Shown piece after piece: positions 32,926 through 55,726 of a stretch of 64,000 nucleotides of DNA. Under the pieces are notes generated by a model. It did not search any database, was not told where the DNA came from, and worked only from the letters and a program-made list of their open reading frames with translations. This stretch comes from an uncultured Chloroflexia bacterium. GTDB lineage: Bacteria > Chloroflexota > Limnocylindria > Limnocylindrales > CSP1-4. Every line of letters begins with the position of its first letter. Position 1 is the first letter of the stretch. The stretch spans positions 192,001 to 256,000 of the forward strand of contig CAVPPB010000002.1 in NCBI GenBank assembly GCA_963707215.1, read 5' to 3'. The position numbers were made by a program, and so were the translations under genes.

Positions 32926-33042
32926 CTGACGCCGGAGTGCCTCGACCGCGCCGGCAGCGAACATGCCACGCCGGCGCTTCGCTACGATCGCCTCCCCGCA
33001 TCGCCGGAGCCTGCCGGATCGGGGTCCAGGCGAAGGAGCGTC

Positions 33043-33330
33043 ATGGCGGTCAAGGTCATCGTCGAGCTGAAGGCCGAACCAGGGCGACGCGACGAGCTGC
33101 GATCGCTCATCGAGCAGCTCGCCACCCGCGATCGACCGAGCGGCTACCACGGGAGCACCTACTACGAGTCGCTCGACGACCCCGACCTGCTCATCGACAT
33201 CGCCGACTGGGAGTCGCCCGAAGCCCGGATGACGCACCTCGCGAAGGCCATGGCCGCCGGTTCGTACGGTCCGGTGCTCGAGTTGCTGGCGGGGCCCTTC
33301 CGGGCGACGGTCATCCGCCGGCTGCCCTGA
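33043..33330 (+). CDS. Antibiotic biosynthesis monooxygenase (ABM) family protein
   Basis: VELKAEPGRRDEL...DDPD...WESPEA; AAGGAG RBS. Confidence 0.8.
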   Translation: MAVKVIVELKAEPGRRDELRSLIEQLATRDRPSGYHGSTYYESLDDPDLLIDIADWESPEARMTHLAKAMAAGSYGPVLELLAGPFRATVIRRLP

Positions 33331-33402
33331 GCCCTGGATCCGCGTCTGGTACCGTCCGGCGACCCTCGGCACCCTCCGTCCGGGGCCAGTCGAGGTGTCC
33401 AC

Positions 33403-33990
33403 GTGGAACCGCTGCGTCCCGATCAGCAGCGCGCGGCTGCGCTGACGCTCGCCGAGGCGTTCGCGAACGACCCCCTGCTCGAGATCCTTGCCCCTGACCA
33501 GGCGCGGCGGGTGAAGCTCGGGCCGCCGATGATGGACATCCTCCTGGCATACGGCCTGCGCTACGGCCGCGTGTGGGCGAACGACGACGCGTCCGCCGTG
33601 GCGATCTGGCTCCATCCCGAGGGTGGGCCGATGACCATGCCCCGGATGCTCCGGGTCGGCATGTGGCGGGCGCCCTTCATCCTCGGGCTGCAGGGCATGG
33701 GCCGGATGTCGAGGGCGATGTCCGCCACCGAAGGCTTCCACAAGCAGGTGGAGGGGCCGCACTGGTATCTCATGACCATCGGGACCCGGATGGCCAGGCA
33801 GGGGCAGGGGCTCGGCTCGCAGCTCGTCGAGCTGGGGACGTCACAGGCGGATGATGCCGGTGTGCCCTGCTACCTCGAGACCGGGACGGACTCCAACATC
33901 GCCTTCTACCGGAAGCGCGGGTTCGAGATCATCGGCCAGGCGGACTGCTACGGGTACACGCTCACCGGCATGATCCGCCCGCCGCGATAG
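33403..33990 (+). CDS. GNAT acetyltransferase
   Basis: AFANDP, HWYL..IG, QGQGLG, YLET, NIAFYRKRGF. Confidence 0.9.
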   Translation: MEPLRPDQQRAAALTLAEAFANDPLLEILAPDQARRVKLGPPMMDILLAYGLRYGRVWANDDASAVAIWLHPEGGPMTMPRMLRVGMWRAPFILGLQGMGRMSRAMSATEGFHKQVEGPHWYLMTIGTRMARQGQGLGSQLVELGTSQADDAGVPCYLETGTDSNIAFYRKRGFEIIGQADCYGYTLTGMIRPPR

Positions 33991-33999
33991 CCGGCGAAC

Positions 34000-34015
34000 T
34001 GGCGCGCCCGCAGGG
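34000..34015 (-). repeat. att-like copy of tRNA-Arg 3' end (15/16)
   Basis: TGGCGCGCCCGCAGGG, intergenic. Confidence 0.7.
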
Positions 34016-34081
34016 GGGTGCTCCCCCACCCTGTTCGACGACCTGGCCTCAGTCAGTGGGTGCCCCTGCTAGCATCCACGG

Positions 34082-34999
34082 ATGCCTGGAGCGGCGCGGC
34101 CGCGGTCGTCCCTTCCCGCGACCTCCGCCGGCACGAGCACCCGCGCCTTCACCCCAGTCGACTGGGGGCTGCTGGTGATCGTCGCCCTCGGATGGGGCTC
34201 GTCGTTCTCCTTCATCGCGATCGGCCTCGGATCGTTCGCGCCAGGCGTGGTCACGATGGCGCGGATCGGGCTTGCCGCCGCGGTCCTGGCACTGTCCGCA
34301 CGGGCACGAGCGCCGGTCGCCCGCGACGACCTCGGTCGCATCGCTCTCCTGGGCGCCGCGTGGGTCGCCATCCCCTACACGCTCTATCCGATCGCCCAGC
34401 AGTGGATCGACTCGTCGGTCGCCGGGATGATCAACGGAGCCATGCCGATCTTCGCGGCGCTGTGGGCGACGCTGCTGCTGCGCCGTCCGCCAGGGTGGCG
34501 CCAGGTGCTCGGCATCGCCGTCGGGTTCGTCGGCATCGTCCTCGTCTTCGTGCCCGAGCTCCAGAGTGGCCCGTCCGCCGCTGGAGGGGCGCTGGTCGCG
34601 CTCCTGGCTGTCTCGTTCTTCGGTCTTGGCGTGAACCTGGCGGTTCCCTTGCAGCAGAAGTACGGAGCCCTGCCCGTGATCCTGCGGGCACAGGTCGCGG
34701 CCTTCGTCATGGTGCTGCCGCTCGGGCTGCTGGGCATCCCCGCGTCGACGTGGGCCTGGGACGCGGCGCTGGCCATGCTCCCGCTCGGCATCTTCGGCAC
34801 CGGCATCGCGTACGCGGCCATGGCCACGCTCGCCGGTCGCGTCGGCGGCTCGCGAGCCGCAGTCACGATCTACTTCGTCCCGCTCGTCGCCGTCGTCCTT
34901 GGCGTGGTCCTGCTCGGCGAGTCCGTCGCCCTGTCCGCCGTCGTCGGAGTCGCCCTGGTCCTGATCGGGGCCGTGAGCGCGTCCCGCCGAGAGCGCTAG
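34082..34999 (+). CDS. DMT/EamA transporter
   Basis: WGSSF, about ten hydrophobic helices, GTGIAY, LLGE. Confidence 0.9.
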   Translation: MPGAARPRSSLPATSAGTSTRAFTPVDWGLLVIVALGWGSSFSFIAIGLGSFAPGVVTMARIGLAAAVLALSARARAPVARDDLGRIALLGAAWVAIPYTLYPIAQQWIDSSVAGMINGAMPIFAALWATLLLRRPPGWRQVLGIAVGFVGIVLVFVPELQSGPSAAGGALVALLAVSFFGLGVNLAVPLQQKYGALPVILRAQVAAFVMVLPLGLLGIPASTWAWDAALAMLPLGIFGTGIAYAAMATLAGRVGGSRAAVTIYFVPLVAVVLGVVLLGESVALSAVVGVALVLIGAVSASRRER

Positions 35000-35152
35000 C
35001 CCTGTACCTCCGGTCCGCCCGGCCCGAGCCCAGGTCCGGTGCCTGCGCGACTCCGGATGCCGCTCGTGCTCCGAGCTGCGATTCGCCATGCCCGGTCCCC
35101 GGGCTTGCCATCCAGTGGACGCGCGGAGAGCGGCATCGGCGGAGCCGTCGGG

Positions 35153-35809
35153 TCAGGCCCGGTGCTCCACCGCGGGAGATCCGGGTCCGCGGAGTCCACC
35201 CACGAACGTGGCGACTGCCGTGTCCAGGAGCGACTCGGCGGTGTGGGTGTCGTCCTCGAATCGGATCTCGCGTTCCAGCACCAGGGTCACGATCCCGTGC
35301 AGCAGCGCCCAGCCGACGCGGGTCGTATCGACCGGGTCGCGTCCGGCAGGGATGGCACATGCCGCGACGCAGTCGCTGAAGAACGTGTAGGAGCCGCGAC
35401 CGGCAGCGACGGTCTCCGGGTACTCGGTGAAGGTCAGAGCGTGCTCGCCGAACAGCACGCGGTAGCGACCCCGGTTGCCAAGGCCGAACCGGACATACGC
35501 CCGCATGATGGCTTCGAGGCGTCCGAACGGCTCTGGCCCGACGGCCGCCGCCGCGGATCCCACTGCCGAGTGAAGTGCTCGGTATGCCTCCGCGGCAAGG
35601 TCAGCGAGCAGGGCCTCCTTGGTGGGGAAGTGGTGGTAGAGAGCGGCGTCTGACACGCCGAGCCGCCGCGCCACGGCGCGCAGGCTTGCCGAGTGCAGTC
35701 CGTCCTGGTCGATCAAGTCGCGCGTGCTGTCGAGGACGGCGGCACGGAGGTTCCCATGGTGGTACCGACCGGCCGGCTTGCCGCGATCAGGGTCGGGTGT
35801 CCGGTCCAT
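35153..35809 (-). CDS. TetR-family regulator (WHG-type C-terminus)
   Basis: YHHGNLR, SLRAVARRLGVS.AALYHHFPTKEALL, WALLHG. Confidence 0.9.
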   Translation of the reverse strand: MDRTPDPDRGKPAGRYHHGNLRAAVLDSTRDLIDQDGLHSASLRAVARRLGVSDAALYHHFPTKEALLADLAAEAYRALHSAVGSAAAAVGPEPFGRLEAIMRAYVRFGLGNRGRYRVLFGEHALTFTEYPETVAAGRGSYTFFSDCVAACAIPAGRDPVDTTRVGWALLHGIVTLVLEREIRFEDDTHTAESLLDTAVATFVGGLRGPGSPAVEHRA

Positions 35810-35837
35810 TGACGTCTATCTTAGCAGTGCTTAGACT
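35809..35837 (+). promoter_or_regulatory. Promoter with overlapping TetR-type operator
   Basis: TTGACG-17 nt-TAGACT; palindrome TCTTAGCA-G-TGCTTAGA at 35819-35835. Confidence 0.65.
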
Positions 35838-35889
35838 GGCCCGTACGCGCTCGGGCCGTCACGCGGCTCCGATTCCCAGGAGGGCTGCG

Positions 35890-36918
35890 ATGGCACGACA
35901 CGATCCAGGCCTGTACCGGCCGGCGGAAGACCGGCTCATCGGCCACTACGGTGTCGAGGTTCGCGAGCATCTCGTCCCGACTGGTGCTGACGGTCACACC
36001 GTGCGCGTCCTGGAGACCGGCTCGGGACCGGCCACGCTCTTCGTGCATGGCTCCCCGAATGCCGCGGCCACCTGGCTCGGGCTGGCGGCCCTGCTTCCGG
36101 ATCGGCGCTGCCTCATGCTCGAGCGACCCGGCGCCGGGCTCAGTCCGTCCATGCCCTGGACGGATCACCGGGCGCAGACCGTGCAGATCCAGTCGGCGGT
36201 CCTGGACCACCTCGAGGTGCGCGAGGTCGACACGGTGGGGTCCTCGTTCGGCGGCCTCTACGTGCTCAACCTCGCTCTCGCCCGTCCGGAGCGGGTGCGC
36301 CGCGTGTTGCTGATCGGTTCGCCTGGAGGGCTTGCATCGCTGCCCTATCCGGCCGTCATCCGCGGCCTGTCGCTCCCCATTCCCGCGTTCCTGCTCGCCA
36401 GGGCACTCAGGCCCGACTCGAGCGGCGCACGCGAGATGTTCGCCCAGATCGGGCACGATGAGTCCGTTCGCGCCGGAGCGATACCGCCGGTCGTCTTCGA
36501 CTGGTACTCCGCACTGCTCCGCCACACGGACACCCTGCCGAACCTCGCTCGCGAGGTGCGCGCCATCGCGACGCCGGTCGGCTATCGGGCTCGTGCGACC
36601 CTCGCCCCCCGGGACCTGGCTGGGCTCTCCCGGCCGGTCGACCTGGTGTGGGGAGGCCGCGACCCGTTCGCCACCCCGGCCCAGGCCGACGCAGCCGCGA
36701 CCGTCATGGGAGCACGGGTCGAGCATCATCCCGGGCTGGGGCACCTGCCCTGGATGGACGACCCAGCGCTGGTTGCCGACTCGATGCGGGCGCTCCTTGG
36801 GCCCGCGCCGCCGGCCTCACGTGTGACCCACGAGGCGCCGGCTGCACGCCCGGTGGCCCCCGGGCGCTCTGCCGTCGCGAACCGGCGCGTCCAGGTCGGG
36901 GGACGCCCCCGGCCATGA
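35890..36918 (+). CDS. Alpha/beta hydrolase
   Basis: FVHG, GSSFGG, WGGRDP, GHLPW. Confidence 0.88.
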   Translation: MARHDPGLYRPAEDRLIGHYGVEVREHLVPTGADGHTVRVLETGSGPATLFVHGSPNAAATWLGLAALLPDRRCLMLERPGAGLSPSMPWTDHRAQTVQIQSAVLDHLEVREVDTVGSSFGGLYVLNLALARPERVRRVLLIGSPGGLASLPYPAVIRGLSLPIPAFLLARALRPDSSGAREMFAQIGHDESVRAGAIPPVVFDWYSALLRHTDTLPNLAREVRAIATPVGYRARATLAPRDLAGLSRPVDLVWGGRDPFATPAQADAAATVMGARVEHHPGLGHLPWMDDPALVADSMRALLGPAPPASRVTHEAPAARPVAPGRSAVANRRVQVGGRPRP

Positions 36919-37577
36919 GCCTGCTCGGAGAGGCCTTGGCCACTGTCTGGCACAGGATGGGCGCCTGGCCCTATGACCGGATCTACCGTCGCGGGGCTCC
37001 ATGGGAGGGCGCGCCCCGCAAGGAGCTCGTCGAGCTGCTGGAGTCTGGTCGCCTGTCGCCAGTGGTGGCGGGCGGTCCCCGAGCGCTGGATGTGGGCTGC
37101 GGTTCGGGCGCAGACACGATCCTGCTGTCCGATCATGGCTTCGATGCTGTCGGGGTGGACTTCTCGACCGTCGCCCTGGAGAAGGCGAGGACGGCCGCGG
37201 GGGACCGCCCAGGCGTCTCGTTCGTGCAGGCCGATCTGTTCGCCCTCCCGGATCAGGTCACGGATCTGCAGTACGACCTGATCTTCGACGGCGGGACGCT
37301 CGATGACTTCCCGGCGGCCCGTCGCCAGGAGCTCGCCCGGATCCTCACCCGCCTGGCTCGACCAGGGGCCGTCCTGGTCCTGTGGTGCTTCTCCGCGGAT
37401 CCTGCCGAGCTCCCCCTGATGAGCCTCCGCGGACCCAGCAGGATGGGGGGTATCGGCGTCTCGCCGGCCGAGGTAGCAGCCAGCTTCGGGGCTGCCTGGG
37501 AGATCGAGCGGCTTGATGAGTCCCGGCCGGGAGGTAGGTCGGCCTTCTACTGGATGACGCGGCGATCTTCGGGGTGA
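36915..37577 (+). CDS. Class I SAM-dependent methyltransferase
   Basis: LDVGCGSG, GVDFS, YDLIFD; ATGA coupling. Confidence 0.9.
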   Translation: MSLLGEALATVWHRMGAWPYDRIYRRGAPWEGAPRKELVELLESGRLSPVVAGGPRALDVGCGSGADTILLSDHGFDAVGVDFSTVALEKARTAAGDRPGVSFVQADLFALPDQVTDLQYDLIFDGGTLDDFPAARRQELARILTRLARPGAVLVLWCFSADPAELPLMSLRGPSRMGGIGVSPAEVAASFGAAWEIERLDESRPGGRSAFYWMTRRSSG

Positions 37578-37701
37578 TGGGGCGGCCGGGCCTCGCTTCG
37601 GCCCGCGACCGATCAGCTCGCTGATCCGACGGCCACCCCCTGCGGGCCCGGAGATGGTGGCTCCCCGAGGCTGACGCGGTGGGCGGTCAAGGGCGAGCAC
37701 C

Positions 37702-37739
37702 TGGCGCGCCCGGAGGCGGTCGGGCGCGAAGGAACGACA
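37702..37739 (-). repeat. att-like site: tRNA 3' end (15/16) plus palindromic arm
   Basis: TGGCGCGCCCG-gaggcggt-CGGGCGCGAAGGAACGACA. Confidence 0.8.
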
Positions 37740-37956
37740 CGTGCTGGTCGACCGCGCGGGAAGTCGGGACGTTGTCCTCTAGCACGCGCCTTGCGAGAGC
37801 AGGACCGTGGGCCCCGACAGCCCATGGCCGGCCCGCCATCCGGGCGCGCGACCACGGGCTCCTGTGAGTGGAGGACGCGGCGGAGCAGATCGTATACGAC
37901 ACCGGATCGACGGTGGTCAGCCCCCGGCCACCGGGATGGAAGCACCTGGAGGGCGC

Positions 37957-40900
37957 ATGTCACCGATGAGGATCAAGCAAGTGATGGCGGCCATCGTCAT
38001 GGCCGCGCTGGTGGCGATGGCCGTACCCATCGGAGCGGCAGCCACGCCCGCCGACGACGTCGTCGAGGTCACGCTGCTGCACACCAACGACTTCCATGGA
38101 CGACTCGAGGCGGACAGCTCCGGTCGTGGAGGATCGGCGAACATCGCCGGGGTCGTCGAGAGCATCAGAGCCGACGTCGGCGAGGACAACGTCGCCCTGC
38201 TGGACGCCGGGGACGTGTACTTCGCGGCGCCCGCCATCTCTCAGCTCCTGATGGGCGAGAGCACCATCGACGTCTACAACCTGATGGGCTACGACGTCGC
38301 CACCTTCGGCAACCACGAGTTCGACAAGGGTCAGGAGGAGCTCGCGACACGCGTCGCCCAGTCGCAGTTCCCGTGGCTGGGTGCGAACGTCGTGCTCGAA
38401 GGCACGGACTGGGACCTGCCCGAGTGGGCGGAGCCGTATGCGCTGCTCGAGGTCGGCGGGATCACGCTTGGCGTCCTCGGACTCGCCGGTGAGGAGACCC
38501 CCGAGGTCACCCTGCTCGGCACCACCGAGGGCCTGATCTTCAAGGACCTGACCGAGACGATCCTGCACTACTACGACACCGTGATGGCCGAGGCCGACGC
38601 GATGGTCGTGCTCGTCCACATGGGCACCGCCGACAGCGGCCCGTACCAGGGGCTCGAGTCGGTGGCCCAGGAGCTGATCGATGCCGGGAAGCCGGTCGAC
38701 CTCATGATCGGCGGCCACCAGCACCAGGCCCTGTTCGCTCCCGTCTACGTCGGTGACACGGCGATCGTTGCGGCCGGCTACTACGGGCGCTGGCTGGGCC
38801 AGGTGGACGTGTCGATCGACCCGTCGACCAAGGATCTGACCGTCAGCTCCTACAAGCTCCACGCCATCACCGAGTGGACCGGGAAGACGGCCGCCCTGAA
38901 GAGCGCGGTCGAGGGCTACTACGCGAGCGGCGCCATCGCCGACGAGGGCATCTTCGACAGCCTGATGGCGAAGCTCGACACTGCCACGGCGTCGATCGAG
39001 CGCGGCCAGACGAAAGCGGCCGCCAACAAGCTCAGCGCGTTCGTCAATCAGCTCGAGGCGCTCAGCGGGAAGAAGGTCGATGCCTCGGCGGCGGAGGCTC
39101 TGATCGCCAGTGCCGAGATGCTCGCGTTCACGCTGCCCGATCCGGCGGTAGCCGACCTCGTGGACTACTGGGCCGAGGTCGTTGCCCCGATCGTCAACGA
39201 GCCGGTCGGGTACACCAACGTGAGCCTGGTCCGCGACTACAACGACGAGTCGGTCATGGGTGACATCGTCAGCGACTCCATGCTGTGGTCGGCCGACTCG
39301 TACGACGACGGCGAGCTCAACGGCTCGGTCGATGTCGCCTTCACCAACCCGGGAGGGCTGCGGGCCGACATCACGATCCCCGACGGGGCCGCCCTGCCGT
39401 ACACCGTGACCTGGGGCGACACCTTCGACGTGCTGCCGTTCGGGAACACGCTGTACCTGATGGACCTCACCGGAGCCCAGATCCAGGAGATCCTCGACCA
39501 GGCGGCCACGCTCTACAAGGGCATGCTGCAGACGTCGGGGGCCGAGTGGTACTGGTACAACGACTGCGGCTGCGCCACGCCGACGGCGTGGGGCGCCTAC
39601 GGGGTGGAGATCGGCGACGAGCCGCTCGTCCGTGACGAGGTCTACCGGGTGGTGACCAACAACTTCCTGGCCGGTGGCCAGGACGGCTGGGTCACCTTCG
39701 CCGACGGCACCAACCGCTGGGACACGTACTACGACATGCAGCAGGGATTCGTGGAGTACATCGAGATGCTCGACGTGATCGACGCCGAGGACATCCCGAT
39801 GGATCGGATCGCCCGCCTCGATGACGTGGTGACGATGCTCCACACCAACGACACCCACGGCACGTGGCCGGAGACCTACTACTACGGCGCGCCCGAGGGC
39901 TTCGCGTTCCTGGCCGACACGATCGCGAAGGAGCGGGCCCACAACCCGAACGCTCTCCTGCTCGATGCCGGTGACACGTTCCAGGGCAATGCCTTCGCCC
40001 AGTACTTCCGCAACGCCGATCCCAACCCGATCGCCGGTGGGATGAACCTGCTCGGCTACGACGCGATGACGATCGGCAACCACGAGTTCAACTTCGGTCC
40101 GGCGACGTTCGCCACCATGCTCGGCCAGCTCGACGCGCCGCTCCTGGGGACGATCAACCTCGACGACGACGGGTCCTACGGCTTCATCAACGAGAACGTC
40201 CAGGACTACATCAACCTCGAGGTCGACGGCCTGAAGGTGACGGTCTTCGGGCTCACCAACCCGCGGGTCTACCGCTACGAGTTGCCCACGAACATCCCCG
40301 GCCTGACGTTCTACTCGGGCCTGGACACCGGGTTCGCGGCGGTACCCGAGATCCTGACGGCGGAGAGCCCGGACCTGCTGGTCGGCCTCACCCACATGGG
40401 GTACTCGCCCTACGGCGACGAGATCGACAGCGACGTGCTCCTGGCCGAGGGCGTCGCCGGGATCGACGTGATCATCGGCGGGCACAGCCACACCTTCCTG
40501 GACCAGGCCGTGATGGTGACGTCCGCCACCAACCCGGACGGGACGCTCGTCGCCCAGTCCGGGCGCTACGCCCTGAACCTGGGGCAGGTCAACGTCGGGT
40601 TCATCGACGGTGAGGTCGTGCTCCGCGAGGGCTATCTGATCCCGGCCACCGAGGCCCAGGTCGACCCCGAGATGGAGGCATACCTGCAGCCCTTCGTGGG
40701 TGAGCTCGACGCCTACACCAGCACCGAGATCGGCCAGACCACGGCCCCGATCGACGCGCTCCAGGCGTATACGCAGGAGACGAACGGCGCCAACCTGCAG
40801 GCCGACGCCGCCGTCTACGAGCTCGAGACCAACGGTGTCACGGTCGACCTCCACCTGTCCGGTGCGATGTCGAACCGCAAGGTCGCGGACGGCGCGACGC

Positions 40901-41412: not shown

Positions 41413-41441
41413 CGTGACGTCGATCTGACGTCCTGAGAGGA

Positions 41442-48855: not shown

Positions 48856-48893
48856 TGGCGCGCCCGGAGGGCTGTGGACGCGCAGGACCAACA
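48856..48893 (-). repeat. att-like site: tRNA 3' end (16/16) plus arm
   Basis: TGGCGCGCCCG-gagggctg-TGGACGCGCAGGACCAACA. Confidence 0.85.
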
Positions 48894-48924
48894 AGCGCTG
48901 CTTGAGAACGCATGGCTCGGGCAG

Positions 48925-49115
48925 GCGTGACAATCCAGGCGCGCCACGTTCCCGTCGTAAAGCTCGCCGAGGAGCACCAAGCGCTCGGGGTCGGTCCCGT
49001 GGTCGGCAGCGTGTGCCACCGCGTACGACACGCGCGGCGAGGGCACCGTTCCGCTCGGCGACGAGCAGCCCTCGAGCACGAGCGCCGCGACGCACAGCGG
49101 CATGACCGGGTTCAT
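48925..49115 (-). pseudogene. Possible esterase lipoprotein remnant
   Basis: Lipobox-like LEGC, then AHAADHGTDPERLVLLGELYDGNVA resembling a decayed DP.R..L.GxSxGG. Confidence 0.4.
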
Positions 49116-49198
49116 CGGCGCCGACGCCGCCGTGGGGTCGGGTCATCCGGATGACGATCCCGGGACTTCCGGCCCTGCCGCATGCCACACGATATTCA

Positions 49199-49210
49199 GT
49201 AATACATTAC
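49199..49210. promoter_or_regulatory. MarR-type operator palindrome
   Basis: GTAAT-ac-ATTAC directly before ATG 49213. Confidence 0.55.
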
Positions 49211-49212
49211 GC

Positions 49213-49710
49213 ATGCAGCACGAGACAACGGACCCATCGCCCGATCCGCGCCCCGTCGCCTTCGGCACCGTCTTCATCGTCGCGCACCACCTCGACCTGC
49301 TCGGCGATGTCGCCCTGGCCCCGCTCGGGCTCACGACCAAGCAGTGGCTCCTGCTCGCCGTCATCGAGCGGGCCTTCGCGGGGCACCACCCGACGCTGAG
49401 CGAGGCGGCGGCCGCGTATGGGAGCTCCCGCCAGAATGTCAAGGCGATGGCGCGGGCCCTCGAGGCCGCGGGCTACCTGCGGCTCGTGCCCGACGCGGTC
49501 GACGGCAGGGCCACCCGGCTCGAGCCGACCGCCCGCCTCGAGGTGTTCGCGACACCGGAGTGGAAGGCCCGCGAGGCGGCGTTCTTCGAGTTCGCCTTCG
49601 GTGGCCTCCCCGCGGAGGACGTGGCCAGCCTCGCCGACCTCCTGCAGCGCTGGCTCGCCGCGGTGGCCGCCATGCCGAACGTTGCCACGCGAGTGAAGGG
49701 AGCGAAATGA
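49213..49710 (+). CDS. MarR-family regulator
   Basis: GLTTKQWLLL, SSRQNVK...LE..GY, D..DGRA. Confidence 0.88.
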   Translation: MQHETTDPSPDPRPVAFGTVFIVAHHLDLLGDVALAPLGLTTKQWLLLAVIERAFAGHHPTLSEAAAAYGSSRQNVKAMARALEAAGYLRLVPDAVDGRATRLEPTARLEVFATPEWKAREAAFFEFAFGGLPAEDVASLADLLQRWLAAVAAMPNVATRVKGAK

Positions 49711-50114
49711 TCGTCCGACTGCTGGCGGCCGCCCTGCTGGCGGCTCACGGCCTCATCCACCTGATTGGGTTCCTCGTGCCCTGGCAGATCGCCCAGGTGG
49801 AGGGCTTCGCGTACCGGACGACGGCACTCGGCGGGAGCGTGGAGCTCGGCACGATCGGAGCGCAGCTCGTCGGCCTCGCCTGGCTCGCGATCGCGGTCGG
49901 CTTCGTCGTCGCCGCGGTCGGTGTCTGGCGCCGGTCTGCGTGGGCGCTCGGGCTGACCGGCGCGCTCGCGATCGCGTCCCTCCTCGTCTGCGTCCTCGGA
50001 CTGCCCGAGACGGTGGCCGGGATCGTCGTGAACGTGGCGATCCTCGCGGCTGCGGCCTGGCTGGCGCTATTCCGGGGGCGCGTGACTGCCCCGGCGACCG
50101 GCGGAGGGCGGTGA
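49707..50114 (+). CDS. Membrane protein (about 4 TM)
   Basis: HGLIHLIGF motif; ATGA-coupled to MarR. Confidence 0.75.
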   Translation: MIVRLLAAALLAAHGLIHLIGFLVPWQIAQVEGFAYRTTALGGSVELGTIGAQLVGLAWLAIAVGFVVAAVGVWRRSAWALGLTGALAIASLLVCVLGLPETVAGIVVNVAILAAAAWLALFRGRVTAPATGGGR

Positions 50115-50908
50115 TGGCACGACCCGTCTCGAAGGCCCGATTCGGGGAGCTCGTCGAGGCCGAGTTCGCGGCCCAGCCGCTCACGCCGTCATCGACGCTC
50201 GCCGAGGAGGACCTGGCGCCCCTGCCCGCTCCCGTCCAGCGCTACGTCCGCGCCTCCGGTGCCGTCGGCCGGCCGCGGCCGCGCAACGTCCGGATCGAGT
50301 TCGATGCCGTCATGCGGCGCAAGCCGGGCGATCAGGGGATGGCCGCGACGTCCGTCCAGTACAACTTCTTCGATCGGCCGGCGCGGCTCTTCTTCATGAC
50401 GGCCCGGATGCACGCGCTGCCGGTGCAGGCCCTCCACGTCTACCGGCTCGAGGAGGCCACCTTCACTGTTCGCGTCGCCTCCCTGGTGAACATGGTCGAC
50501 CAGCATGGCCCGGAGATCAGCCGGGCCGAGACGGTGACCGTCCTCAACGACCTCTGCGTGTTCGCGCCGGGCGCGCTCGTCGACCCCCGGCTCAGCTGGC
50601 AGCCGATCGACGACCGGAGCGCCGCCGTGACGTTCACGAACGGCCCGCACCGTGTCTCGGCAACGCTCCTCTTCGGCGAACACGGCGAGCTGGTCGACTT
50701 CTGGTCGGACGATCGGCCCGACAGCAGCAGTGGCCGCTTCGTGCCGATGCGCTGGAGCACGCCCGTCGGCGATCATCGCGAGGTCGGCGGCCTCCGCCTG
50801 CCGACGCGGGGCAGCACCATCTACGCCCGTCCGGATGGCCCGTTCACCTACGGCGAGTTCACGCTGCGCTCGCTCGCCTGCGATGTCCCCGGACCGCACG
50901 GCGGGTAG
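50114..50908 (+). CDS. DUF6544-like protein
   Basis: DL.PLP.PVQRY, QYNF...P.R.F, ETVTVLND, WSTP. Confidence 0.75.
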   Translation: MARPVSKARFGELVEAEFAAQPLTPSSTLAEEDLAPLPAPVQRYVRASGAVGRPRPRNVRIEFDAVMRRKPGDQGMAATSVQYNFFDRPARLFFMTARMHALPVQALHVYRLEEATFTVRVASLVNMVDQHGPEISRAETVTVLNDLCVFAPGALVDPRLSWQPIDDRSAAVTFTNGPHRVSATLLFGEHGELVDFWSDDRPDSSSGRFVPMRWSTPVGDHREVGGLRLPTRGSTIYARPDGPFTYGEFTLRSLACDVPGPHGG

Positions 50909-50952
50909 CCACGCCGCGCATGCTCTCCCGGACACACCTCACGGGGGACCCA

Positions 50953-51399
50953 GTGGACATCCTCTCGGCCGCGATCATCATCTTCGCCGTCATCGAGACG
51001 CTCAACGTCGGCATCCTCTACTTCCGTCCCGGCACGCGCGTGGGCAACGGGATGGGCGTGTTCAACGCCTATCGGACGTCGGAAGCCGACCCGGAGACGC
51101 GCGAGCTCGTCCGCTACCTGGTCAACTGGGTGGCCGGCACCAAGCTCATCTTCGTGGGCCTGCTCGCCGTGATCGTCCTCACGGGCAGCCAGACGACGAA
51201 GGCGTTCGCGGTCATGGCCCTGATCCTCTCGATCCTCTCGTTCTTCTGGCGCCTGTTCCCGGGGATCGTTCGTCTCGACCGGGACGGTCAGATCACCCCG
51301 AGCGGGTACTCGAGGACGCTGGGGATCATGATCGCGTGCTTCGTCGGGGGATTGGCCGCAGCGTTGGTCGTGTCCCTCGCGTTCGGTTCCGGCGGCTGA
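50953..51399 (+). CDS. Hypothetical membrane protein
   Basis: Hydrophobic helices, YLVNWVAGTKLIF, strong GC3 bias. Confidence 0.7.
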   Translation: MDILSAAIIIFAVIETLNVGILYFRPGTRVGNGMGVFNAYRTSEADPETRELVRYLVNWVAGTKLIFVGLLAVIVLTGSQTTKAFAVMALILSILSFFWRLFPGIVRLDRDGQITPSGYSRTLGIMIACFVGGLAAALVVSLAFGSGG

Positions 51400-51477
51400 C
51401 GAGGCCGCTGCCTCACGCAACCCGACGCGGAGCGCGGCCCTTCGGCCCGAGCTCGCGACCTTCGCCCCTCGCCGGGA

Positions 51478-51666
51478 GCGCAGCTCCCGTCAACGGCGAC
51501 AGGCTGTGCCTCGAGCACACGATGTTCAGCCAGACGGTGTTCGGGGACGCCGGCCCCCTGGGCTTCACGCTCGTGGGCGAGTGGGATGCTGTCGGCGGCA
51601 CGGGGCGGTTCGCCCATGCGACGGGACACGGCACGCTGGACGGGGCTGGTGACATCCCCGACGGAC
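51478..51666 (+). pseudogene. Internal fragment of a beta-barrel secreted-type protein
   Basis: NGDRL...GEW..VGGTGRFAHATG.G motif without a proper start. Confidence 0.45.
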
Positions 51667-51859
51667 GGGGACGTTGGGCCTTCCTGACGGCCTCGCGGCG
51701 TTCAACTTCACGGGCGGGACGCGTACGATGCATCGGACCGCTCGATGAAGCCGCAGGACCGAGGGCTCATCCCCCGGTCGCGTTACGCATCGTCAGGGGC
51801 CTCAATCGCGCTGTCGCTCTCGACCAGCTGCCCGCGATGGCACGGCTCCTGACCGCGTC

Positions 51860-51892
51860 CAGGTGTCGCCGATGTCGCGACGCAGGTGTCGC
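51860..51892. mobile_element. IS481-type subterminal repeat remnant
   Basis: 30/33 identical to 55596-55628. Confidence 0.75.
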
Positions 51893-51927
51893 TCGAGCCC
51901 CACGGCGTCAGGCGCGCAGGAGCAATA
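51893..51927 (-). repeat. Degenerate att-like site (right arm retained)
   Basis: GGCGCGCAGGAGCAATA matches the arm consensus GGCGCGCAGGAACAACA. Confidence 0.5.
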
Positions 51928-52173
51928 CGGGCGACGGATCGGGCCCGCCGGGGCGCGGCACGAGATGAACCGCCCCGGGTTCGTCGCGGACCGGGATCGC
52001 TGAGTCGCGGGTGCGCGACCGGAGGCCGTTCGCCCGCCCCGACCCATCCACGCACTCCGCCAGGGCGAAGGTCAGACGAGAGCAGCCGGGCGCCCTCCGG
52101 GCGTCGTGGCCTGGCGAGCAGGGGCGATGTCCCGAAGCTCGGTCCAGCGGAACACGTGAAGGTGAGTGCCACG

Positions 52174-52740
52174 GTGGGTGAGACGATCAAGATCCTGATC
52201 CTCGCGGGCAGTCTCCGCCGGGGCTCGTACAACCGGGCGCTGGCGCGTGCTGCTGCGCAGCTCGCACCGAGCGGCGTGGCCACCGCGACGTTCGATGGGC
52301 TCGGCGCCCTCCCGTTCTACGACGGGGACGTCGAGGACGAAGGTCTGCCCGCGAGCGTCAGTGCGCTGCGGCGGGCGATCGTGGAAGCCGACGCGCTGCT
52401 CCTCGCGACCCCCGAGTACAACGGCGCCACGAGTGGGGTCCTCAAGAACGCCCTCGACTGGGCCTCCCGCGGGCCCGACAGGATCCTCGCCCGAAAGCCC
52501 GTCGCGGTCATGGGCGCGTCGACCGGGGCGAGTGGTGCGAGAGGTGGGATCGAGTCGGTCGTGCGGATCATGACCCGCGTGCGTTCGGAGGTGGTCGGTC
52601 ACCTCGTCGCCGTTCCGTTCGCGGCGCAGGCGTTCGACGACGACCTGGCCCTGCGGGACCCGGAGATTCGCACCGAGGTCGCCGAGCTGGTCGCCGAGCT
52701 CGCCGGTCGCGCTCGCAGCAGCACCGCTCTCGCCGCCTGA
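52174..52740 (+). CDS. NADPH-dependent FMN reductase
   Basis: GSLRRGSYN, TPEYN, LKNALDW, KPV. Confidence 0.92.
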   Translation: MGETIKILILAGSLRRGSYNRALARAAAQLAPSGVATATFDGLGALPFYDGDVEDEGLPASVSALRRAIVEADALLLATPEYNGATSGVLKNALDWASRGPDRILARKPVAVMGASTGASGARGGIESVVRIMTRVRSEVVGHLVAVPFAAQAFDDDLALRDPEIRTEVAELVAELAGRARSSTALAA

Positions 52741-52792
52741 CGGGCTGCCTCGCAGCAGGGCCGCGGAGCGTGAGCGGTGCTACCGTCGCCGC

Positions 52793-53239
52793 ATGAGTGG
52801 CACCGCGGCGCCCCACCGGTCGTCGCTTCCTCGGACCATCGCACGGGTGGCCCTGGGGTTGGTCCTGCTGGTCGCCGGCATCGCCCATCTCACCTTCGGC
52901 CGCGAGGAGTTCACCGCGCAGGTCCCGGACTGGCTGCCGGTGGCCGACGACCTCGTCGTCGTCGGGTCGGGTGTCGTCGAGCTCGCACTCGGCGCGTCCC
53001 TCATCGCCCTGCCGCGCCATCGGGTCGCCGTGGGCTGGCTGTCGGCAGCGTTCCTCGTCGCGATCTTCCCGGGGAACATCGCCCAGTACGTGAACCAGGT
53101 CGACGCCTTCGGGCTCACCAGCGACGGGGCGCGAGCGGCCCGCCTGGTCCTCCAGCCGCTTCTCGTCCTGTGGGCTCTCTGGTCGACGGATGCATGGCGC
53201 GACCGGGCAATGCTCTGGAGAGTGGTTGGCGGCCCGTGA
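52793..53239 (+). CDS. DoxX-like membrane protein
   Basis: AGIAH, QVP.WLP, SGVVE, IFPGNI, RL..QP. Confidence 0.85.
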   Translation: MSGTAAPHRSSLPRTIARVALGLVLLVAGIAHLTFGREEFTAQVPDWLPVADDLVVVGSGVVELALGASLIALPRHRVAVGWLSAAFLVAIFPGNIAQYVNQVDAFGLTSDGARAARLVLQPLLVLWALWSTDAWRDRAMLWRVVGGP

Positions 53240-53265
53240 TAGGCGGAGGTGCCGGCCGGCGGCTT

Positions 53266-53282
53266 TGTCGCGACGCATGACA
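53266..53282. mobile_element. IS481-type terminus
   Basis: TGTCGCGACGCATGACA, 16/17 identical to 55632-55648, also 1 nt before the tRNA-end copy. Confidence 0.8.
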
Positions 53283-53283
53283 A

Positions 53284-53321
53284 TGGCGCGCCCGGAGGGC
53301 ATCGGGCACGCAGGAACAACA
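53284..53321 (-). repeat. att-like site: tRNA 3' end (16/16) plus arm
   Basis: TGGCGCGCCCG-gagggcat-CGGGCACGCAGGAACAACA. Confidence 0.88.
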
Positions 53322-53516
53322 ACGGCCACGCTCCTGTTCAACGATGGCCCCTGCTCCTCCCGAGTGGCCCGCTCTGATAGGGATAGACCCCAGATCGCTT
53401 GTCCGTCAGCCGCTCGGTTGATATTCGGGTCTGGACGGCCAGTGGCGACGGGTGGTTCAAGCGGTGGAACGGGACCCGCCCCAGGACCGCGAGATCGACC
53501 AGCCGGCCCGACGTCG

Positions 53517-53708
53517 CTAGCTGTCGTCCGAGCCCTGCTCCGATTGCCAGAATCCGAGGCCAAGGACGACGAAGACGACGCACAGGACGATGAACGCCGC
53601 GTTGGCCGCGATGGCCCCAGTGTCGCCAACGAATCCAGCGACTCCCGCGATCAGAAAGCACAGTGCGGCGATCAAGTACATCACCGCTGCTCTACGCCGA
53701 GCCTTCAA
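53517..53708 (-). CDS. Small two-TM membrane protein
   Basis: AAAGGAGG RBS before TTG; two hydrophobic helices; locally lower GC. Confidence 0.55.
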   Translation of the reverse strand: MKARRRAAVMYLIAALCFLIAGVAGFVGDTGAIAANAAFIVLCVVFVVLGLGFWQSEQGSDDS

Positions 53709-53801
53709 GCCAATTCCTCCTTTCGCAGTAGTTGTGCAGGTTGGGCGGTCATCTCCAGAGCTCGCCCCCAGGGCCCCACGACCACATGACCTCTGAACAC
53801 G

Positions 53802-53852
53802 TGCCGATGGCCATCTGAAGGTCCCCGCCTGTGGCCAAGAGAAGTCCCCACC
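53802..53852. mobile_element. IS21-like end remnant
   Basis: TG start, then TGGCCA...GAAG(G)TCCCC repeated twice, resembling IS21 subterminal repeats. Confidence 0.45.
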
Positions 53853-53904
53853 GGGCGACGGCGTCGTGGACGGCGGCCCAGGCGACGATGCCGTGGGAAC
53901 TCGC

Positions 53905-54225
53905 TCAGTCGGGCAGGCCCGCAAGCGCTTCGTGCATCGCGGTCCGGTAGCGGCGGAACGCAGCTCGCCCTTCGTCGGTGAGCGAAACCATCGAGTGCGG
54001 CTTCTTTCCCCTATAGCCCTTCTCGATCGCCACGTAGCCCGCGGTCTCGAGCTTGGTCAGACTGGTAGACAGATTGCCCCACGTCAGTCCGGTCTGGTTG
54101 ATCAGCCAGGTGAAGTCGGCCGCATCCAGGACGGCCAGCTCGATCAGCAGGCGCAATCGTGCCGGCGAGTGGATCACGGGATCGATCTCCTCGAGCGGAT
54201 GAGCGCCCGGATCGCTACTGGTCAT
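53905..54225 (-). CDS. Winged-helix regulator (HTH_34/ArsR-like)
   Basis: DPVIHSPARL, LTWGNLS..L.KLE.AGY, LT.EGR.AF..Y. Confidence 0.88.
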   Translation of the reverse strand: MTSSDPGAHPLEEIDPVIHSPARLRLLIELAVLDAADFTWLINQTGLTWGNLSTSLTKLETAGYVAIEKGYRGKKPHSMVSLTDEGRAAFRRYRTAMHEALAGLPD

Positions 54226-54856
54226 GCAGTTCTCCGGCCGCCTCTGGGGCCGCCCGATGCGTTCTGGCCAGCAGGCGAGCGAATTGGGTCACGCCGATGC
54301 TCGCGACCACCACGGCCGCCACTCCGAAGGTCACCGGCCAGCCGTGGTGCGCGGCGTAGCCCTCACGGAACAGCCATTCCCCGATGACCACCGCCGCCGC
54401 GAACATGAGCCCATAGAGGTACAGCCGCGGCGTGTCCAGGTAGTAGGCCGCCGTCGAGAAGAGCACGAGCCAGATCAGCATGAACATGATCGTTGGCGCG
54501 TAGCCGGCCGACGGGCTCAGGAGGAAGGCGATCAACCCTCCCCCGAGGGCGATGACGTTGACCGCCAGCATGAGCAGCATGAACGTCCGAAGGCGTCGCT
54601 GCCGGTAGTCGCCGACGCGCACGATGCCAACTCGGGAGACCAGCAGCCGACTCCGGACCAGCTTGATCAGCAGGTACGCACCTCCCACCACAGGGACCAG
54701 GATCGCCGAGCTCCAGAAGTCGCCCAGCGACTCGCTCAGCAGCAGGATGAGGGCGAAACCCGCCAAGAAGCAGGCGAGCAACACGTCCCACAATCCGTCG
54801 TCGTAGGCGTTGCGGAACGCCCTGCGCTCCGCCTGTCCGAGATCGGTGAGTGTCAT
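54215..54856 (-). CDS. Membrane protein
   Basis: Y.DGLWD, several TM helices; GAGGAG RBS; overlaps regulator start. Confidence 0.8.
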   Translation of the reverse strand: MTLTDLGQAERRAFRNAYDDGLWDVLLACFLAGFALILLLSESLGDFWSSAILVPVVGGAYLLIKLVRSRLLVSRVGIVRVGDYRQRRLRTFMLLMLAVNVIALGGGLIAFLLSPSAGYAPTIMFMLIWLVLFSTAAYYLDTPRLYLYGLMFAAAVVIGEWLFREGYAAHHGWPVTFGVAAVVVASIGVTQFARLLARTHRAAPEAAGELHDQ

Positions 54857-54872
54857 GGTCGCACTCCTCAAG

Positions 54873-54921
54873 AGTACTTTGCAGGTCAAAGTACTTTAGC
54901 CTCCTACGCCTGGCATGTCAA
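54873..54921 (-). promoter_or_regulatory. Promoter with perfect 9-bp inverted-repeat operator
   Basis: Minus TTGACA-17 nt-TAAAGT; AGTACTTTG-caggt-CAAAGTACT at 54873-54895. Confidence 0.75.
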
Positions 54922-55648
54922 GCCGGCCACCGGGACGGCGGCGACGACGTGGTGGCCACGTTCAGCGCGGCAGGCGAGGAGCACGGGTGGCCCGCCGCCC
55001 CGCTCACCGACACCGGCGCGGTCTACACGTCGCGCTTCACCGGGGGCCGCAACGGCTTCGAGTACCTGCTCGCCTACCTCGGCATCCGCCAGAAGAACGG
55101 GACGCCGGGCCATCCCCAGACCCAGGGCAAGAACGAGCGCTTCCGCCAGACCCTCAAGCGCTGGCTCGAGAACCAGCCGGCGGCGCGGACCCTGGGCGAG
55201 CTCCAGACCCAGCTCGACGCCTTCTGCCTCGCCTACAACGAGCAGCGGCCGCACCGGGCGGTCGGCCGGATGACGCCCGGCGAGGCGTACCGGGCGACGC
55301 CCACGACGATGGTCGCCGGGAGCCGCGCCGGCCACTTCCGTCTCCGCTACGACGTGACCGACGGGAAGGGCGCGATCACCCTGCGCCGGGCCGGCCGCCT
55401 GCACCACCTCAACATCGGCGCGGCTCATGCCCGTCAGCGGGTCCTGGCCATCGTCGACGAGCACGAGGTCACGGTCGTCGCCCTCGACACCGGCGAGGTC
55501 CTGTCCAGCCACCTCATCGAGCCGGACCGCCGGTACTGGCGCAACCAACGAAGAGACCCCGGCCGATGGCCGAGGTCTCCAGCGACCGGGTGACGCATGT
55601 GTCGCCGATGTCGCGACTCATGTGTCGCACATGTCGCGACTCATGACA
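54922..55648 (+). mobile_element. 5'-truncated IS481-family element (transposase C-terminal part to 55593, right end)
   Basis: LTDTG, PGHPQTQGKNERF, YNEQRPH..GRMTP; two 23-nt subterminal repeats, terminal ACA. Confidence 0.85.
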
Positions 55649-55649
55649 C

Positions 55650-55726
55650 TGGCGCGCCCGGAGGGATTCGAACCCCCGACCCTCTGATCCGAAGTCAGAT
55701 GCTCTGATCCACTGAGCTACGGGCGC
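55650..55726 (-). tRNA. tRNA-Arg (anticodon TCG)
   Basis: 77-nt cloverleaf, GCGCCCG/CGGGCGC acceptor, TCTGA-CTTCGGA-TCAGA anticodon arm, GGTTCGAATCC, encoded CCA. Confidence 0.97.

Follow-up and report, generated by a model that had tools for sequence, protein, structure and literature searches.

A 24-kb stack of gene modules at tRNA-Arg(TCG) of an uncultured Chloroflexota bacterium: probable serial integration of the large serine recombinase type with homing of an IS481-family insertion sequence

We analyzed a 64,000-nt stretch of DNA (the window; contig CAVPPB010000002.1, positions 192,001–256,000) from the 3.26-Mb assembly GCA_963707215.1 (5 contigs, 85% complete) of an uncultured bacterium of soil or sediment, and describe here a stack of gene modules on the 3' side of its tRNA-Arg(TCG) gene that we read as a probable additive island. 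The genome under study is called G000; other G numbers denote genomes of relatives and L numbers denote loci. ARAGORN detected a single tRNA in the window, tRNA-Arg(TCG) at 55650–55726 on the minus strand (Rfam tRNA model, 71.6 bits), which is the anchor of the stack and its attB-type attachment (att) site. The last 16 nt of this tRNA including CCA, TGGCGCGCCCGGAGGG on the plus strand (55650–55665), represent tRNA positions 61–76, namely the 3' strand of the T-stem, the 3' strand of the acceptor stem, N73 and CCA. An earlier note on this DNA had reported further copies of this 16-mer, and a scan of the window confirmed them: exact copies lie on the plus strand at 47769, 48856, 53284 and 55650 (the tRNA itself), and copies with one mismatch at 34000 and 37702, the spacings between the clear sites being, as noted before, 2366, 4428, 1087, 10067 and 3702 nt. 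All six sites at up to one mismatch are on the plus strand, on the 3' side of the tRNA and intergenic relative to genes called from third-position GC and Pfam. With up to two mismatches the window holds 7 matches, against 0.87 expected and a maximum of 3 in 100 shuffles; a two-mismatch match on the minus strand at 37836 is probably due to chance. The copies are not scattered through the genome: 4 of 4 exact matches and 6 of 6 at up to one mismatch in the whole assembly fall inside this 22-kb stretch (at up to two mismatches the assembly has 30).

Moving outwards from the tRNA, the first feature is a truncated IS481-family insertion sequence (IS) at 54927–55649 on the plus strand, which is discussed below. 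The cassette nearest the tRNA (53300–54926; GC 0.655–0.67) carries an unconfirmed small open reading frame (ORF) on the minus strand, an HTH_34 regulator (53905–54225, minus strand, Pfam) and a 224-aa membrane protein (54215–54889, minus strand). It is bounded by junction S1 (53266–53325, plus strand), composed of an 18-nt stub of the IS right end (53266–53283), the exact 16-mer (53284–53299) and the right arm CAT-CGGGCACGC-AG-GAACAACAA. One or more modules follow at 48898–53265, with all genes on the plus strand and Pfam matches for MarR (49102–49710), DUF6544 (49940–50908), FMN reductase (within 51886–52740) and a DoxX-like protein (52793–53239), besides a 159-aa ORF (50920–51399); the FMN reductase part shares 81% DNA identity with L012 of G018. 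Within this stretch lies the decayed junction S1b (51858–51929, plus strand). Junction S2 (48856–48897, plus strand; exact 16-mer and right arm CTG-TGGACGCGC-AG-GACCAACAA) and junction S3 (47769–47812, plus strand; exact 16-mer and a right arm with a 1-nt insertion, GCGC-CGGGCCCGC-AG-AGGCAACAG) enclose a 1.07-kb GNAT acetyltransferase cassette (47785–48855, plus strand; ORF at about 47996–48757, Pfam).

Beyond S3, the module at 43310–47768 has genes on both strands, identified by Pfam as a hydrolase-cyclase fusion (43336–44718, minus), an MFS transporter (44824–46116, minus), a CGNR zinc-finger regulator (46191–46817, plus) and a B3_4-domain protein (46902–47609, minus). It ends at the degenerate junction S4 (43234–43332, plus strand), where a left motif of about 60 nt precedes a 12/16 copy of the 16-mer. 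The plus-strand module at 37744–43233 encodes a 1201-aa 5'-nucleotidase/metallophosphoesterase (37807–41412; GC 0.66–0.68) and an M28 peptidase (41544–43268; both Pfam), and is followed by junction S5 (37642–37743, plus strand), with the left motif, a 15/16 copy at 37702–37717 and the right arm GGT-CGGGCGCGA-AG-GAACGACAC. The module at 34016–37641 is again mixed in orientation, with an EamA transporter (34082–34999, plus), a TetR regulator (35153–35809, minus) and an alpha/beta hydrolase (within 35575–36918, plus; all Pfam). Junction S6 (34000–34015, plus strand) is a 15/16 copy located 10 nt past the stop codon of a GNAT gene and has no right arm. The module behind it (32943–33999, plus strand) comprises a 96-aa ORF (33040–33330) that had no match in an NCBIfam scan and whose region (33034–33336) is 91% identical at the DNA level to L023 of G102, and this second GNAT (33403–33990), a relative of a GNAT in G094. 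The oldest recognisable junction, S7 (32867–32942, plus strand), retains the left motif with the 16-mer nearly erased. The outermost variable region (31530–32866, minus strand) holds an alpha/beta-hydrolase lipoprotein gene (31592 to about 32640), and synteny with the same-genus genome G001 stops at about 31525, the left flank being 86% identical up to that point. A MurJ gene lies on the other side of the tRNA. The GC content, about 0.71–0.72 elsewhere, dips to 0.655–0.68 in 38001–41000 and 53001–55000, where the 5'-nucleotidase gene and the tRNA-nearest cassette lie.

The quality of the sites falls with distance from the tRNA, and the three degenerate copies proposed earlier fared differently. 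The match at 43294 agrees with the 16-mer at 12 of 16 positions and that at 32927 is very poor; since the same left-flank motif of about 60 nt stands directly left of 37702, 43294 and 32927 (at 37642–37701, 43234–43293 and 32867–32926) and nowhere else in the genome, the three are related junctions. It corresponds to the 3' terminus of a gene of the M28 peptidase type: at 43294 that gene is present (stop codon at 43268), at the other two places the motif is an orphan remnant. At 51893 the 16-mer is gone: an inner piece of the IS right end (51858–51892) is followed directly by the right-arm-like GCGCGCAGGAGCAATAC, and the spot is, judged from these pieces, a decayed junction.

That the repeats are tRNA 3' ends, as first proposed, describes the 16-mer but not the whole repeat. 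Four of the five non-tRNA copies (53284, 48856, 47769 and 37702) also carry a right arm, in which three variable bases (four at 47769) are followed by an inverted copy of GCGCGCCCG agreeing at 7–8 of 9 positions, then AG and a GAACAACA-like motif; this arm is half of a palindromic att site of about 46–48 bp. A profile built from 12 sites of four genomes retrieved from G000, at E < 1e-6, the four right-arm sites of the window alone, and no dif or other site bearing these arms was found elsewhere in G000. The palindrome axis splits the terminal GG of the 16-mer, and identity with the tRNA goes no further than this central GG. The same design occurs at two other tRNAs of G000, tRNA-Pro(CGG) (C3:1279714; end copies at 1275057 and 1268222) and tRNA-Arg(CCG) (C3:1647212–1647287; end copy at 1651525), where the copies consist of exactly 16 identical nt, 3 variable nt and an inverted copy of the respective tRNA's own end. 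An imperfect palindrome with its axis on the terminal GG, where identity ends at all three tRNAs, would be compatible with attP-type geometry. The S6 junction at 34000 lacks the right arm; we had considered a decayed tRNA 3' half there and dropped the idea, as its right flank scores like shuffled sequence for tRNA likeness (z = 0). Also dropped were the right arm as the IS left end (no likeness by eye) or as an ECF (extracytoplasmic function)-type promoter, and the 16-mer as a tRNA-end copy resembling a primer-binding site of a reverse transcriptase (RVT_1 had no match in G000).

We find it hardly credible that duplication, rather than recombination, spread the repeats as elements with a regulatory role or a function in RNA, such as terminators, promoters or hairpins like an acceptor stem. 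By reading, a GC-rich hairpin resembling an acceptor stem with CCA can form at the site, the GGAAC of the right arm is similar to an ECF-type -35 box, and ECF sigma cassettes are frequent in the arrays of one genus; but an Rfam scan of the whole window (E up to 1) matched the tRNA only and no family at the repeats, the spacing to -10-like motifs is by eye inconsistent, the right arm decays without compensating changes, and the strict tie to the cognate tRNA, with each tRNA's own sequence, points to recombination of DNA.

In relatives, the palindrome is made up to 48 bp by a left outer arm, (T/G)TGTTGTTC; 14–17 of 24 positions are mirrored in three sites (random mean 7.1), the outer motifs mirroring each other at positions 16–24 around the central GG; in class-2 elements, as read from the relatives' loci, GGTTGG on the left and CCAACC on the right are mirrored 18–23 nt from the same central GG. 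Of 301 family genomes, 26 contain the left-arm 24-mer and none the reversed control. It stands directly against the true tRNA in 9 of the 30 loci read and before class-1 arms in about a dozen, a pattern expected if cassettes enter the tRNA one by one. (Tallies of family genomes may include G097, G154 and G216, which are left out of the descriptions of loci.)

Taken together, we consider it probable, with a confidence somewhat above even, that the region from 31.5 to 55.7 kb is an additive island on tRNA-Arg(TCG), produced by serial integration of the large serine recombinase (LSR) type with homing of an IS481-family IS as a second layer; the 24-kb stack was apparently added serially by a recombinase now gone from G000. 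Modules would enter successively at the tRNA 3' end by LSR-type site-specific recombination, the incoming element bringing an imperfectly palindromic att site of about 46–48 bp. The left half of this site would contain an exact copy of tRNA positions 61–76, which leaves the tRNA intact after integration, and its right half an inverted, diverged copy, followed in class-1 cassettes by GAACAACAC. Crossover is predicted at the GG with which the 16-mer closes, in the middle of the palindrome; this would explain why tRNA identity breaks off sharply after 16 nt and three variable bases follow. Every integration would displace the old tRNA end outwards as a 16-mer joined to the newcomer's right arm, which would leave repeats in the same orientation, exact near the tRNA and decayed farther out. 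The IS, as flanking duplications in relatives show, enters the centre of the site in one orientation and duplicates 15–16 bp of it; it left the truncated copy by the tRNA and the stubs at 53266 and 51858. The earlier proposal that modules are stacked on the 3' side of the tRNA is supported, the sites decaying with distance and the same cassettes lying between such sites in other genera.

We compared the locus with relatives, a set without a genome of the same species. The exact 16-mer occurs in 14 of 41 genomes including G000, all within its family: 13 of 24 family members besides G000 have it, against 0 of 16 in the sister family. In family genomes it is often clustered on a single strand, and 287 of 301 contain it at up to one mismatch, a count that includes the tRNA itself. 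Arrays reach seven copies within 27 kb in G217 and six (one mismatched) within 12 kb in G274, while G023 has four modules of about 1 kb consecutively, in which Pfam classed four ORFs as a methyltransferase, a hydrolase and two unknowns. The pattern of 16-mer plus arm was found in 32 stretches of the species collection, all from Chloroflexota or 'Chloroflexia' metagenome-assembled genomes. Cassettes are shared across genera. The GNAT cassette of the window (47762–48771) has equally sized counterparts between sites in G274 (twice) and G094 that are 82% identical to it in DNA, and thus occurs in three genomes of two genera, measuring about 1.05 kb site to site each time; the homologous stretch runs from the 16-mer to about 10 nt past the stop codon. 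A module of MerR and a BBE-type oxidase is common to four genomes, and hydrolase and DUF2867 cassettes to two each. In line with the earlier note, the points where homology between genomes breaks off are concentrated at the sites: of 275 ends of high-scoring segment pairs, 25 are no more than 30 nt from a non-tRNA site, where 2.6 would be expected and 1000 random draws gave 8 at most, with the reservation that these ends are not independent of each other. In L018 of G094 (4362–4302, minus strand) two complete sites stand 60 nt apart, with a right arm, 11 nt and a left arm between them, and so form an 'empty' cassette. Two modules of G009 (L001 12176–13992 and L002 18403–19976), 96% identical to each other, begin with a copy of about 45 nt of the tRNA 3' half followed by a HipA-like kinase gene; they are a different type of element at the same tRNA.

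Public sequencing runs gave a hint of the order of arrival. Across the region 46500–56400, four sediment metagenome runs from four studies matched only the tRNA-nearest cassette, at about 98–100% identity; uncovered parts of the region in these runs are no evidence of absence. The matches break at 53266–53315 and at 54931, that is, they run from the site to the edge of the IS fragment. This near-identity, and the fact that the same cassette has the lowest GC, fit its being the latest arrival. In the 20 public runs sampled, at most 0.15 of the sampled words were present in any one, which means that none of the 20 holds the organism.

The earlier statement that no recombinase is visible stands for the window, where no recombinase gene was found (PF00589 had no match on this contig, PF00239 none in the G000 assembly, and tblastn revealed no LSR); it had overlooked the truncated IS481-family transposase gene by the tRNA. 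PF00589 matched two Xer-like genes and one broken integrase in G000, all on contig C3. The latter, a frameshifted tyrosine integrase at C3:400514–401049, adjoins tRNA-Lys(CTT) (401182–401256) and suggests an ordinary decayed island elsewhere in the genome. No gene of the resolvase, recombinase and zinc-ribbon type that marks LSR elements is present in the window or intact in G000; such genes are present in relatives, for instance in L002 of G009 (PF00239, PF07508 and PF13408). A gutted LSR gene does lie in G000 beside tRNA-Arg(CCG) (L111, C3:1646800–1652300, at about 454–1020, minus strand), of which a 29-aa N-terminal piece and the C-terminal approximately 120 aa are kept and the middle is deleted; it is 69% identical over 118 aa to intact LSRs of relatives (E = 8e-48). 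Like the decayed IS copies described below, this remnant is kept on its tRNA-proximal side.

LSR homologues were found in 47 of 151 family genomes, G000 not among them. Of 30 loci, 17 have an LSR ORF that extends in antisense into a tRNA 3' end (Pro-CGG in 8, Arg-CCG in 8, Val-CAC in 1); in 3 others the tRNA lies slightly past a truncated match, and 10 have no tRNA in the locus. The LSR clade of the Arg(TCG) type is present in 6 of 301 genomes (E up to 1e-60). It abuts tRNA-Arg(TCG) in G187, where the gene (L102) looks intact, in G007 and in G253, where it is broken, and an internal 16-mer in G009, and close relatives abut tRNA-Arg(CCT) in G141 and G195. The tails of these ORFs read ...VARPEGFEPPT(L/V) across the 16-mer, just as the earlier note had anticipated (recombinases ending near ARPEG). 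Elements of 7–15 kb with this LSR have the class-2 right arm at the far junction in 3 of the 3 checkable cases, the contig of G007 ending first. Islands of relatives at the same tRNA carry an LSR, and the window, with an intact tRNA and five displaced direct copies of its last 16 nt on the 3' side, has the ends of a tRNA-targeting (Islander-type) island but no integrase inside. The suggestion that a recombinase acts in trans or has been lost received some support on each count: action in trans agrees with the frequency of arrays and the scarcity of the Arg(TCG)-type LSR (6 of 301 genomes), and loss agrees with the gutted gene at tRNA-Arg(CCG). For small cassettes, movement in trans is something that we infer.

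A tyrosine recombinase, for example one of the host's two Xer-like enzymes, acting on a core site of the inner 9–11-bp arms and an 8-bp spacer, would be a different agent, and we regard it as improbable. The two Xer-like proteins are the only intact site-specific recombinases found in G000, and G274 and G094 likewise have Xer-like enzymes only, apart from weak serine matches; the inner arms and spacer have Xer/Cre-like dimensions; and cassettes flanked by Xer sites, with ISs homing to them, are on record (10.1101/2022.12.17.520857, PMC10132070, in the parts available). No tyrosine-recombinase-like ORFs were detected by phmmer in about 56 array loci, nor tyrosine recombinases near the arrays of G217, G274, G094, G190 and G023. 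Against this agent, 3 of 8 spacer bases differ between cassette and tRNA. A tyrosine recombinase needs homology across the spacer, for which three heterologous bases are an obstacle, whereas with a serine recombinase and its 2-bp crossover the sequence 3' of the crossover comes from the element and must be exact, the other side being free. The symmetry axis marks the limit of identity, which a serine-type crossover of 2 bp would produce; the arms reach 23–24 nt, LSR genes of relatives end in these sites, and the arms occur at no other site of G000. Geometry of this kind, with the axis on the terminal GG, would suit a serine recombinase, and we infer that an LSR, rather than another enzyme, produced the junctions of the window.

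Several observations weigh against LSR-type integration as the origin of the island. The window has no LSR gene or remnant and the 85%-complete assembly no intact LSR, so that no enzyme can be tied to the window junctions. The left outer arm is at none of these junctions (G000 has 0 matches to the 24-mer), which as they stand mirror just 9–12 of 24 positions. In relatives, an LSR lies within 1.5 kb of a class-1 left arm in 0 of 28 loci; the link to LSRs rests on the class-2 elements and the geometry of the site, and the cassettes of the window are class 1. Known LSRs recombine attP with attB only and not hybrid sites, whereas the arrays of relatives show insertion beside a P-type left arm, which would call for either a laxer enzyme or another mechanism and is not textbook LSR behaviour. 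The 3' ends of cassettes vary, the GNAT homology stopping 44–85 nt before the next site. The contigs from the four sediment runs are of low depth, and the joints listed are short-sided (20–39 nt) or contain unknown letters; none was counted as an excision. Finally, the same-genus genome G001 is fragmented and its tRNA-Arg(TCG) unassembled, the loci fetched from it holding Arg-GCG, Ser-GCT and Arg-CCG tRNAs.

A related question is whether the units themselves are mobile. Each module could be merely the remnant of a full-size LSR (or other) island that has been shorn of its integrase side, without any small mobile unit; as a complete account of the stack we consider this unlikely, but worth serious consideration. 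It would agree with the gutted LSR gene at tRNA-Arg(CCG), with IS copies reduced to tRNA-proximal pieces of 18–740 nt, with the M28-type gene-end remnant left of three junctions, with the several multi-gene modules of the window that have their own regulators, and with the 6–15-kb LSR-bearing elements of relatives. It sits less well with the constant size of the GNAT cassette (about 1.05 kb site to site in G000, in G094 and twice in one G274 array), with class-1 cassettes of relatives that end in the palindrome-completing left arm without an LSR beside it (0 of 28 loci), or with the four modules of about 1 kb in series in G023 and the 60-bp 'empty' unit of G094. Under LSR-type serial integration, 1–5-kb LSR-less cassettes would either move as units, with the LSR acting in trans, or be stumps of larger elements, and between these two possibilities we see roughly even odds.

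The IS next to the tRNA forms the second layer of the locus. The 723-bp fragment is the 3' 55% of the element and aligns by blastn with positions 606–1332 of a relative's complete 1.33-kb copy; its ORF (54850–55593) encodes the C-terminal part of a transposase (Pfam rve_3, 4e-19), and its right end, in which GTCGCGACTCATG motifs recur, reaches to within 1 nt of the tRNA CCA. The NCBIfam IS481 model (NF033577) gave 97 bits for the fragment and 248.3 bits for the full copy L016 of G217, against a cut-off of 224 (the ISNCY model gave the full copy just 86.5 bits); by this profile the element belongs to the IS481 family. No other copy was found in G000. Both terminal inverted repeats and target duplications, as expected of IS481, are seen in relatives, the window keeping the right end only. 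Copies in relatives are flanked by a direct repeat of x + TGGCGCGCCCGGAGG, the duplication being 16 bp in G217 and 15 bp in G190 for the 1.33-kb copies, and in G009 a 16/16 direct repeat surrounds a 307-bp deletion derivative with inverted ends of 31–36 nt. By these flanking duplications, the IS enters in one orientation between the last two G's and duplicates the tRNA end. In the window, the 18-nt stub stands directly against the 16-mer at 53284, with an inner piece of the same IS end at 51858, and the element is, on this sequence evidence, what shaped the two junctions nearest the tRNA. Decayed copies in all array loci always keep the tRNA-proximal right end (stubs of 18–740 nt), never the left end alone. 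Tandem duplicates of the 16-mer, offset by 15–17 nt, occur in G274, G094, G102 and G009 (L013 9567/9584, L018 3269/3252, L023 18024/18039 and L001 11240/11255, sometimes with T or TG between them) and, by position, in G118 and G229; they look like footprints of IS loss.

It might be asked whether repeated insertion of this IS alone, through its target-site duplications, produced all the copies. The IS duplicates exactly these 15–16 nt, IS stubs abut the two tRNA-nearest junctions and the tRNA, and tandem 16-mer footprints are found in several genomes. Among 68 catalogued sites (14 genomes), however, 13 have an IS right end on the left and just 3 have the IS left end that should follow a left duplicate, all of them two-ended copies, whereas a class-1 arm follows 25 and a class-2 arm 9. 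In addition, tRNA-Pro(CGG) and tRNA-Arg(CCG) have the same design with the IS absent nearby, and cassettes are shared with no IS present in them. The IS as sole cause of the copies is largely refuted and very improbable.

A more elaborate reading, which we offer tentatively and hold to be unlikely as a whole, is a three-party platform for gene capture without a resident integrase, in which miniature cassettes bringing just a palindromic att site of about 48 bp, a rare, wandering LSR that inserts them at tRNA 3' ends and an IS481-family 'att-site hunter' would act together. The IS would cut at the crossover dinucleotide, and its 15–16-nt duplication would restore an attB-like site from a spent hybrid junction by the intact tRNA, so that the stack could grow on. 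It would be a counterpart, based on a serine recombinase, of the integron or Xer-cassette system. Such a platform appears to be widespread in this uncultured Chloroflexota family, at several tRNAs at once.

Comparison with described systems places the island, read as LSR-type serial integration, among additive tRNA islands. It is established that elements accrete in tandem at tRNA genes and leave partial-tRNA repeats (PMC4383910, 10.1101/2020.12.28.424599). In the available text of these sources, Islander-type islands and the tycheposons of Prochlorococcus likewise target the 3' part of a tRNA, restore the gene and leave a partial tRNA at the far end, newcomers push older elements outwards, and remnants and extra partial tRNAs pile up. 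The tycheposon account gives an identity block of about 40 nt rather than the 16 nt found here, and reports an LSR in the 27 of 937 elements without a tyrosine recombinase (10.1101/2020.12.28.424599). In the present island the end of the block forms the centre of a palindromic site, the window array has no integrase or integrase fragment, and many units are 1–2-gene cassettes of about 1 kb; tycheposons, for comparison, carry a site-specific integrase and often replication genes. The additive islands of 'Ca. Actinomarinales' are similar in their small cassettes at tRNAs with a tRNA-fragment repeat, their cross-genus exchange of cassettes at about 75% identity and the ISs in the boundary tRNA; no site architecture or enzyme is named in the text available (PMC7771536), and those hosts are Actinobacteria, ours Chloroflexota.

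Elements of the LSR type (phages, integrative and conjugative elements, SCCmec-type elements) have an imperfect palindromic attP of about 50 bp with a non-palindromic central dinucleotide and an adjoining recombinase gene, and their att partners need identity solely at the crossover. The palindrome around a central dinucleotide would be compatible with this geometry. Unlike in such elements, integration here targets the final 16 nt of tRNA genes; the LSR ORF of relatives crosses the att site, which means that its tail changes on integration; and tandem insertion by a P-type arm and LSR-less mini-cassettes are not textbook features. Cassettes at Xer sites in Acinetobacter (pdif/xrs) resemble ours as small modules that are bounded by recombination sites and lack a recombinase of their own, and IS1202-family ISs at Xer sites are DDE elements that insert in one orientation at a fixed place, one subgroup with 15–17-bp duplications (10.1101/2022.12.17.520857, PMC10132070, as far as given there). 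The sites of the island, by contrast, are tRNA-derived, in direct orientation and unlike Xer sites, and the IS is of the IS481 family and enters the site at its centre, whereas those ISs insert 5 bp away from the site. A search of G000 with a dif consensus gave no dif-like site; dif is AT-rich, and the arms of the island look nothing like it.

The description of the array as integron-like does not survive beyond analogy. As in integrons, small cassettes form an ordered array with imperfect palindromes between them, growing at a fixed end with the newest by the anchor. There is, however, no IntI, attI, attC or common promoter logic: no intI adjoins (the PF00589 matches of G000 are all on another contig), and instead of attC sites after single promoterless same-strand ORFs we found sites upstream of plus-strand genes and modules of 1–5 genes on both strands, several of them multi-gene and with regulators.

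Tandem tRNA-linked additive islands built of cassettes have been described repeatedly, site architectures not being given in the portions available (PMC7771536, PMC4383910, 10.1101/2020.12.28.424599). What the present sequence adds is a testable mechanism: the site measures about 48 bp, a crossover of 2 bp is predicted at tRNA C61-C62, the genes of a candidate enzyme family terminate within the site, and an IS homes to the site centre. The separate themes are already known; new are the lineage and the combination, in one defined site, of the 16-nt block, a tRNA-derived palindrome of about 48 bp and an LSR gene ending in its own att site, with LSR-less cassettes of about 1 kb and an IS481-family element cutting at the site centre. 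In the open-access literature, within the terms searched, we found nothing on this site, on IS481 homing to a tRNA end or on such arrays in Chloroflexota. Should the 1-kb cassettes without an LSR really prove to be mobilised in trans, a large uncultured lineage of soil and sediment would have a serine-recombinase counterpart of gene shuffling by integrons or Xer cassettes; if the modules are merely stumps of decayed islands, the stack would represent ordinary, if unusually tidy, tandem accretion. The system also offers compact natural att sites and recombinases for site-specific integration at tRNA genes.

Some further observations concern other tRNAs and arms. In G000, tRNA-Gly(CCC) (C1:717584) has a copy at 722409 that repeats about 45 nt of the tRNA and its flank, and tRNA-Leu(TAG) (C3:320754) a copy of its last 16 nt at 308206; like those of tRNA-Pro(CGG) and tRNA-Arg(CCG), these end copies are on the same strand as the tRNA, on its 3' side and within 13 kb. 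Directly after class-2 arms there is a conserved mini-ORF of 15 codons, V/M-IEGV-x-EL-V/I-E-A/G-LRA-A/T in most copies and VVEGVERLVSALRAA in the G217 copy (L017 6983, L019 156 and 3149, L002 9677, L015 13699, L020 13459). A third type of right arm (…CGACAC…CGCAGCGC.CTGGA.CG) stands behind Arg-type 16-mers in L011 (16804 and 17765), L120 and L126, and in G014 it lies close to tRNA-Gly(CCC). Far from the island, the c-di-GMP-II-GAG riboswitch model matched the window at 2150–2239 and 7994–8081 with 35.4 and 35.6 bits, below the Rfam gathering score of 40, and a stretch of G019 (L006 17039–17405) resembles both of these riboswitch-like regions.

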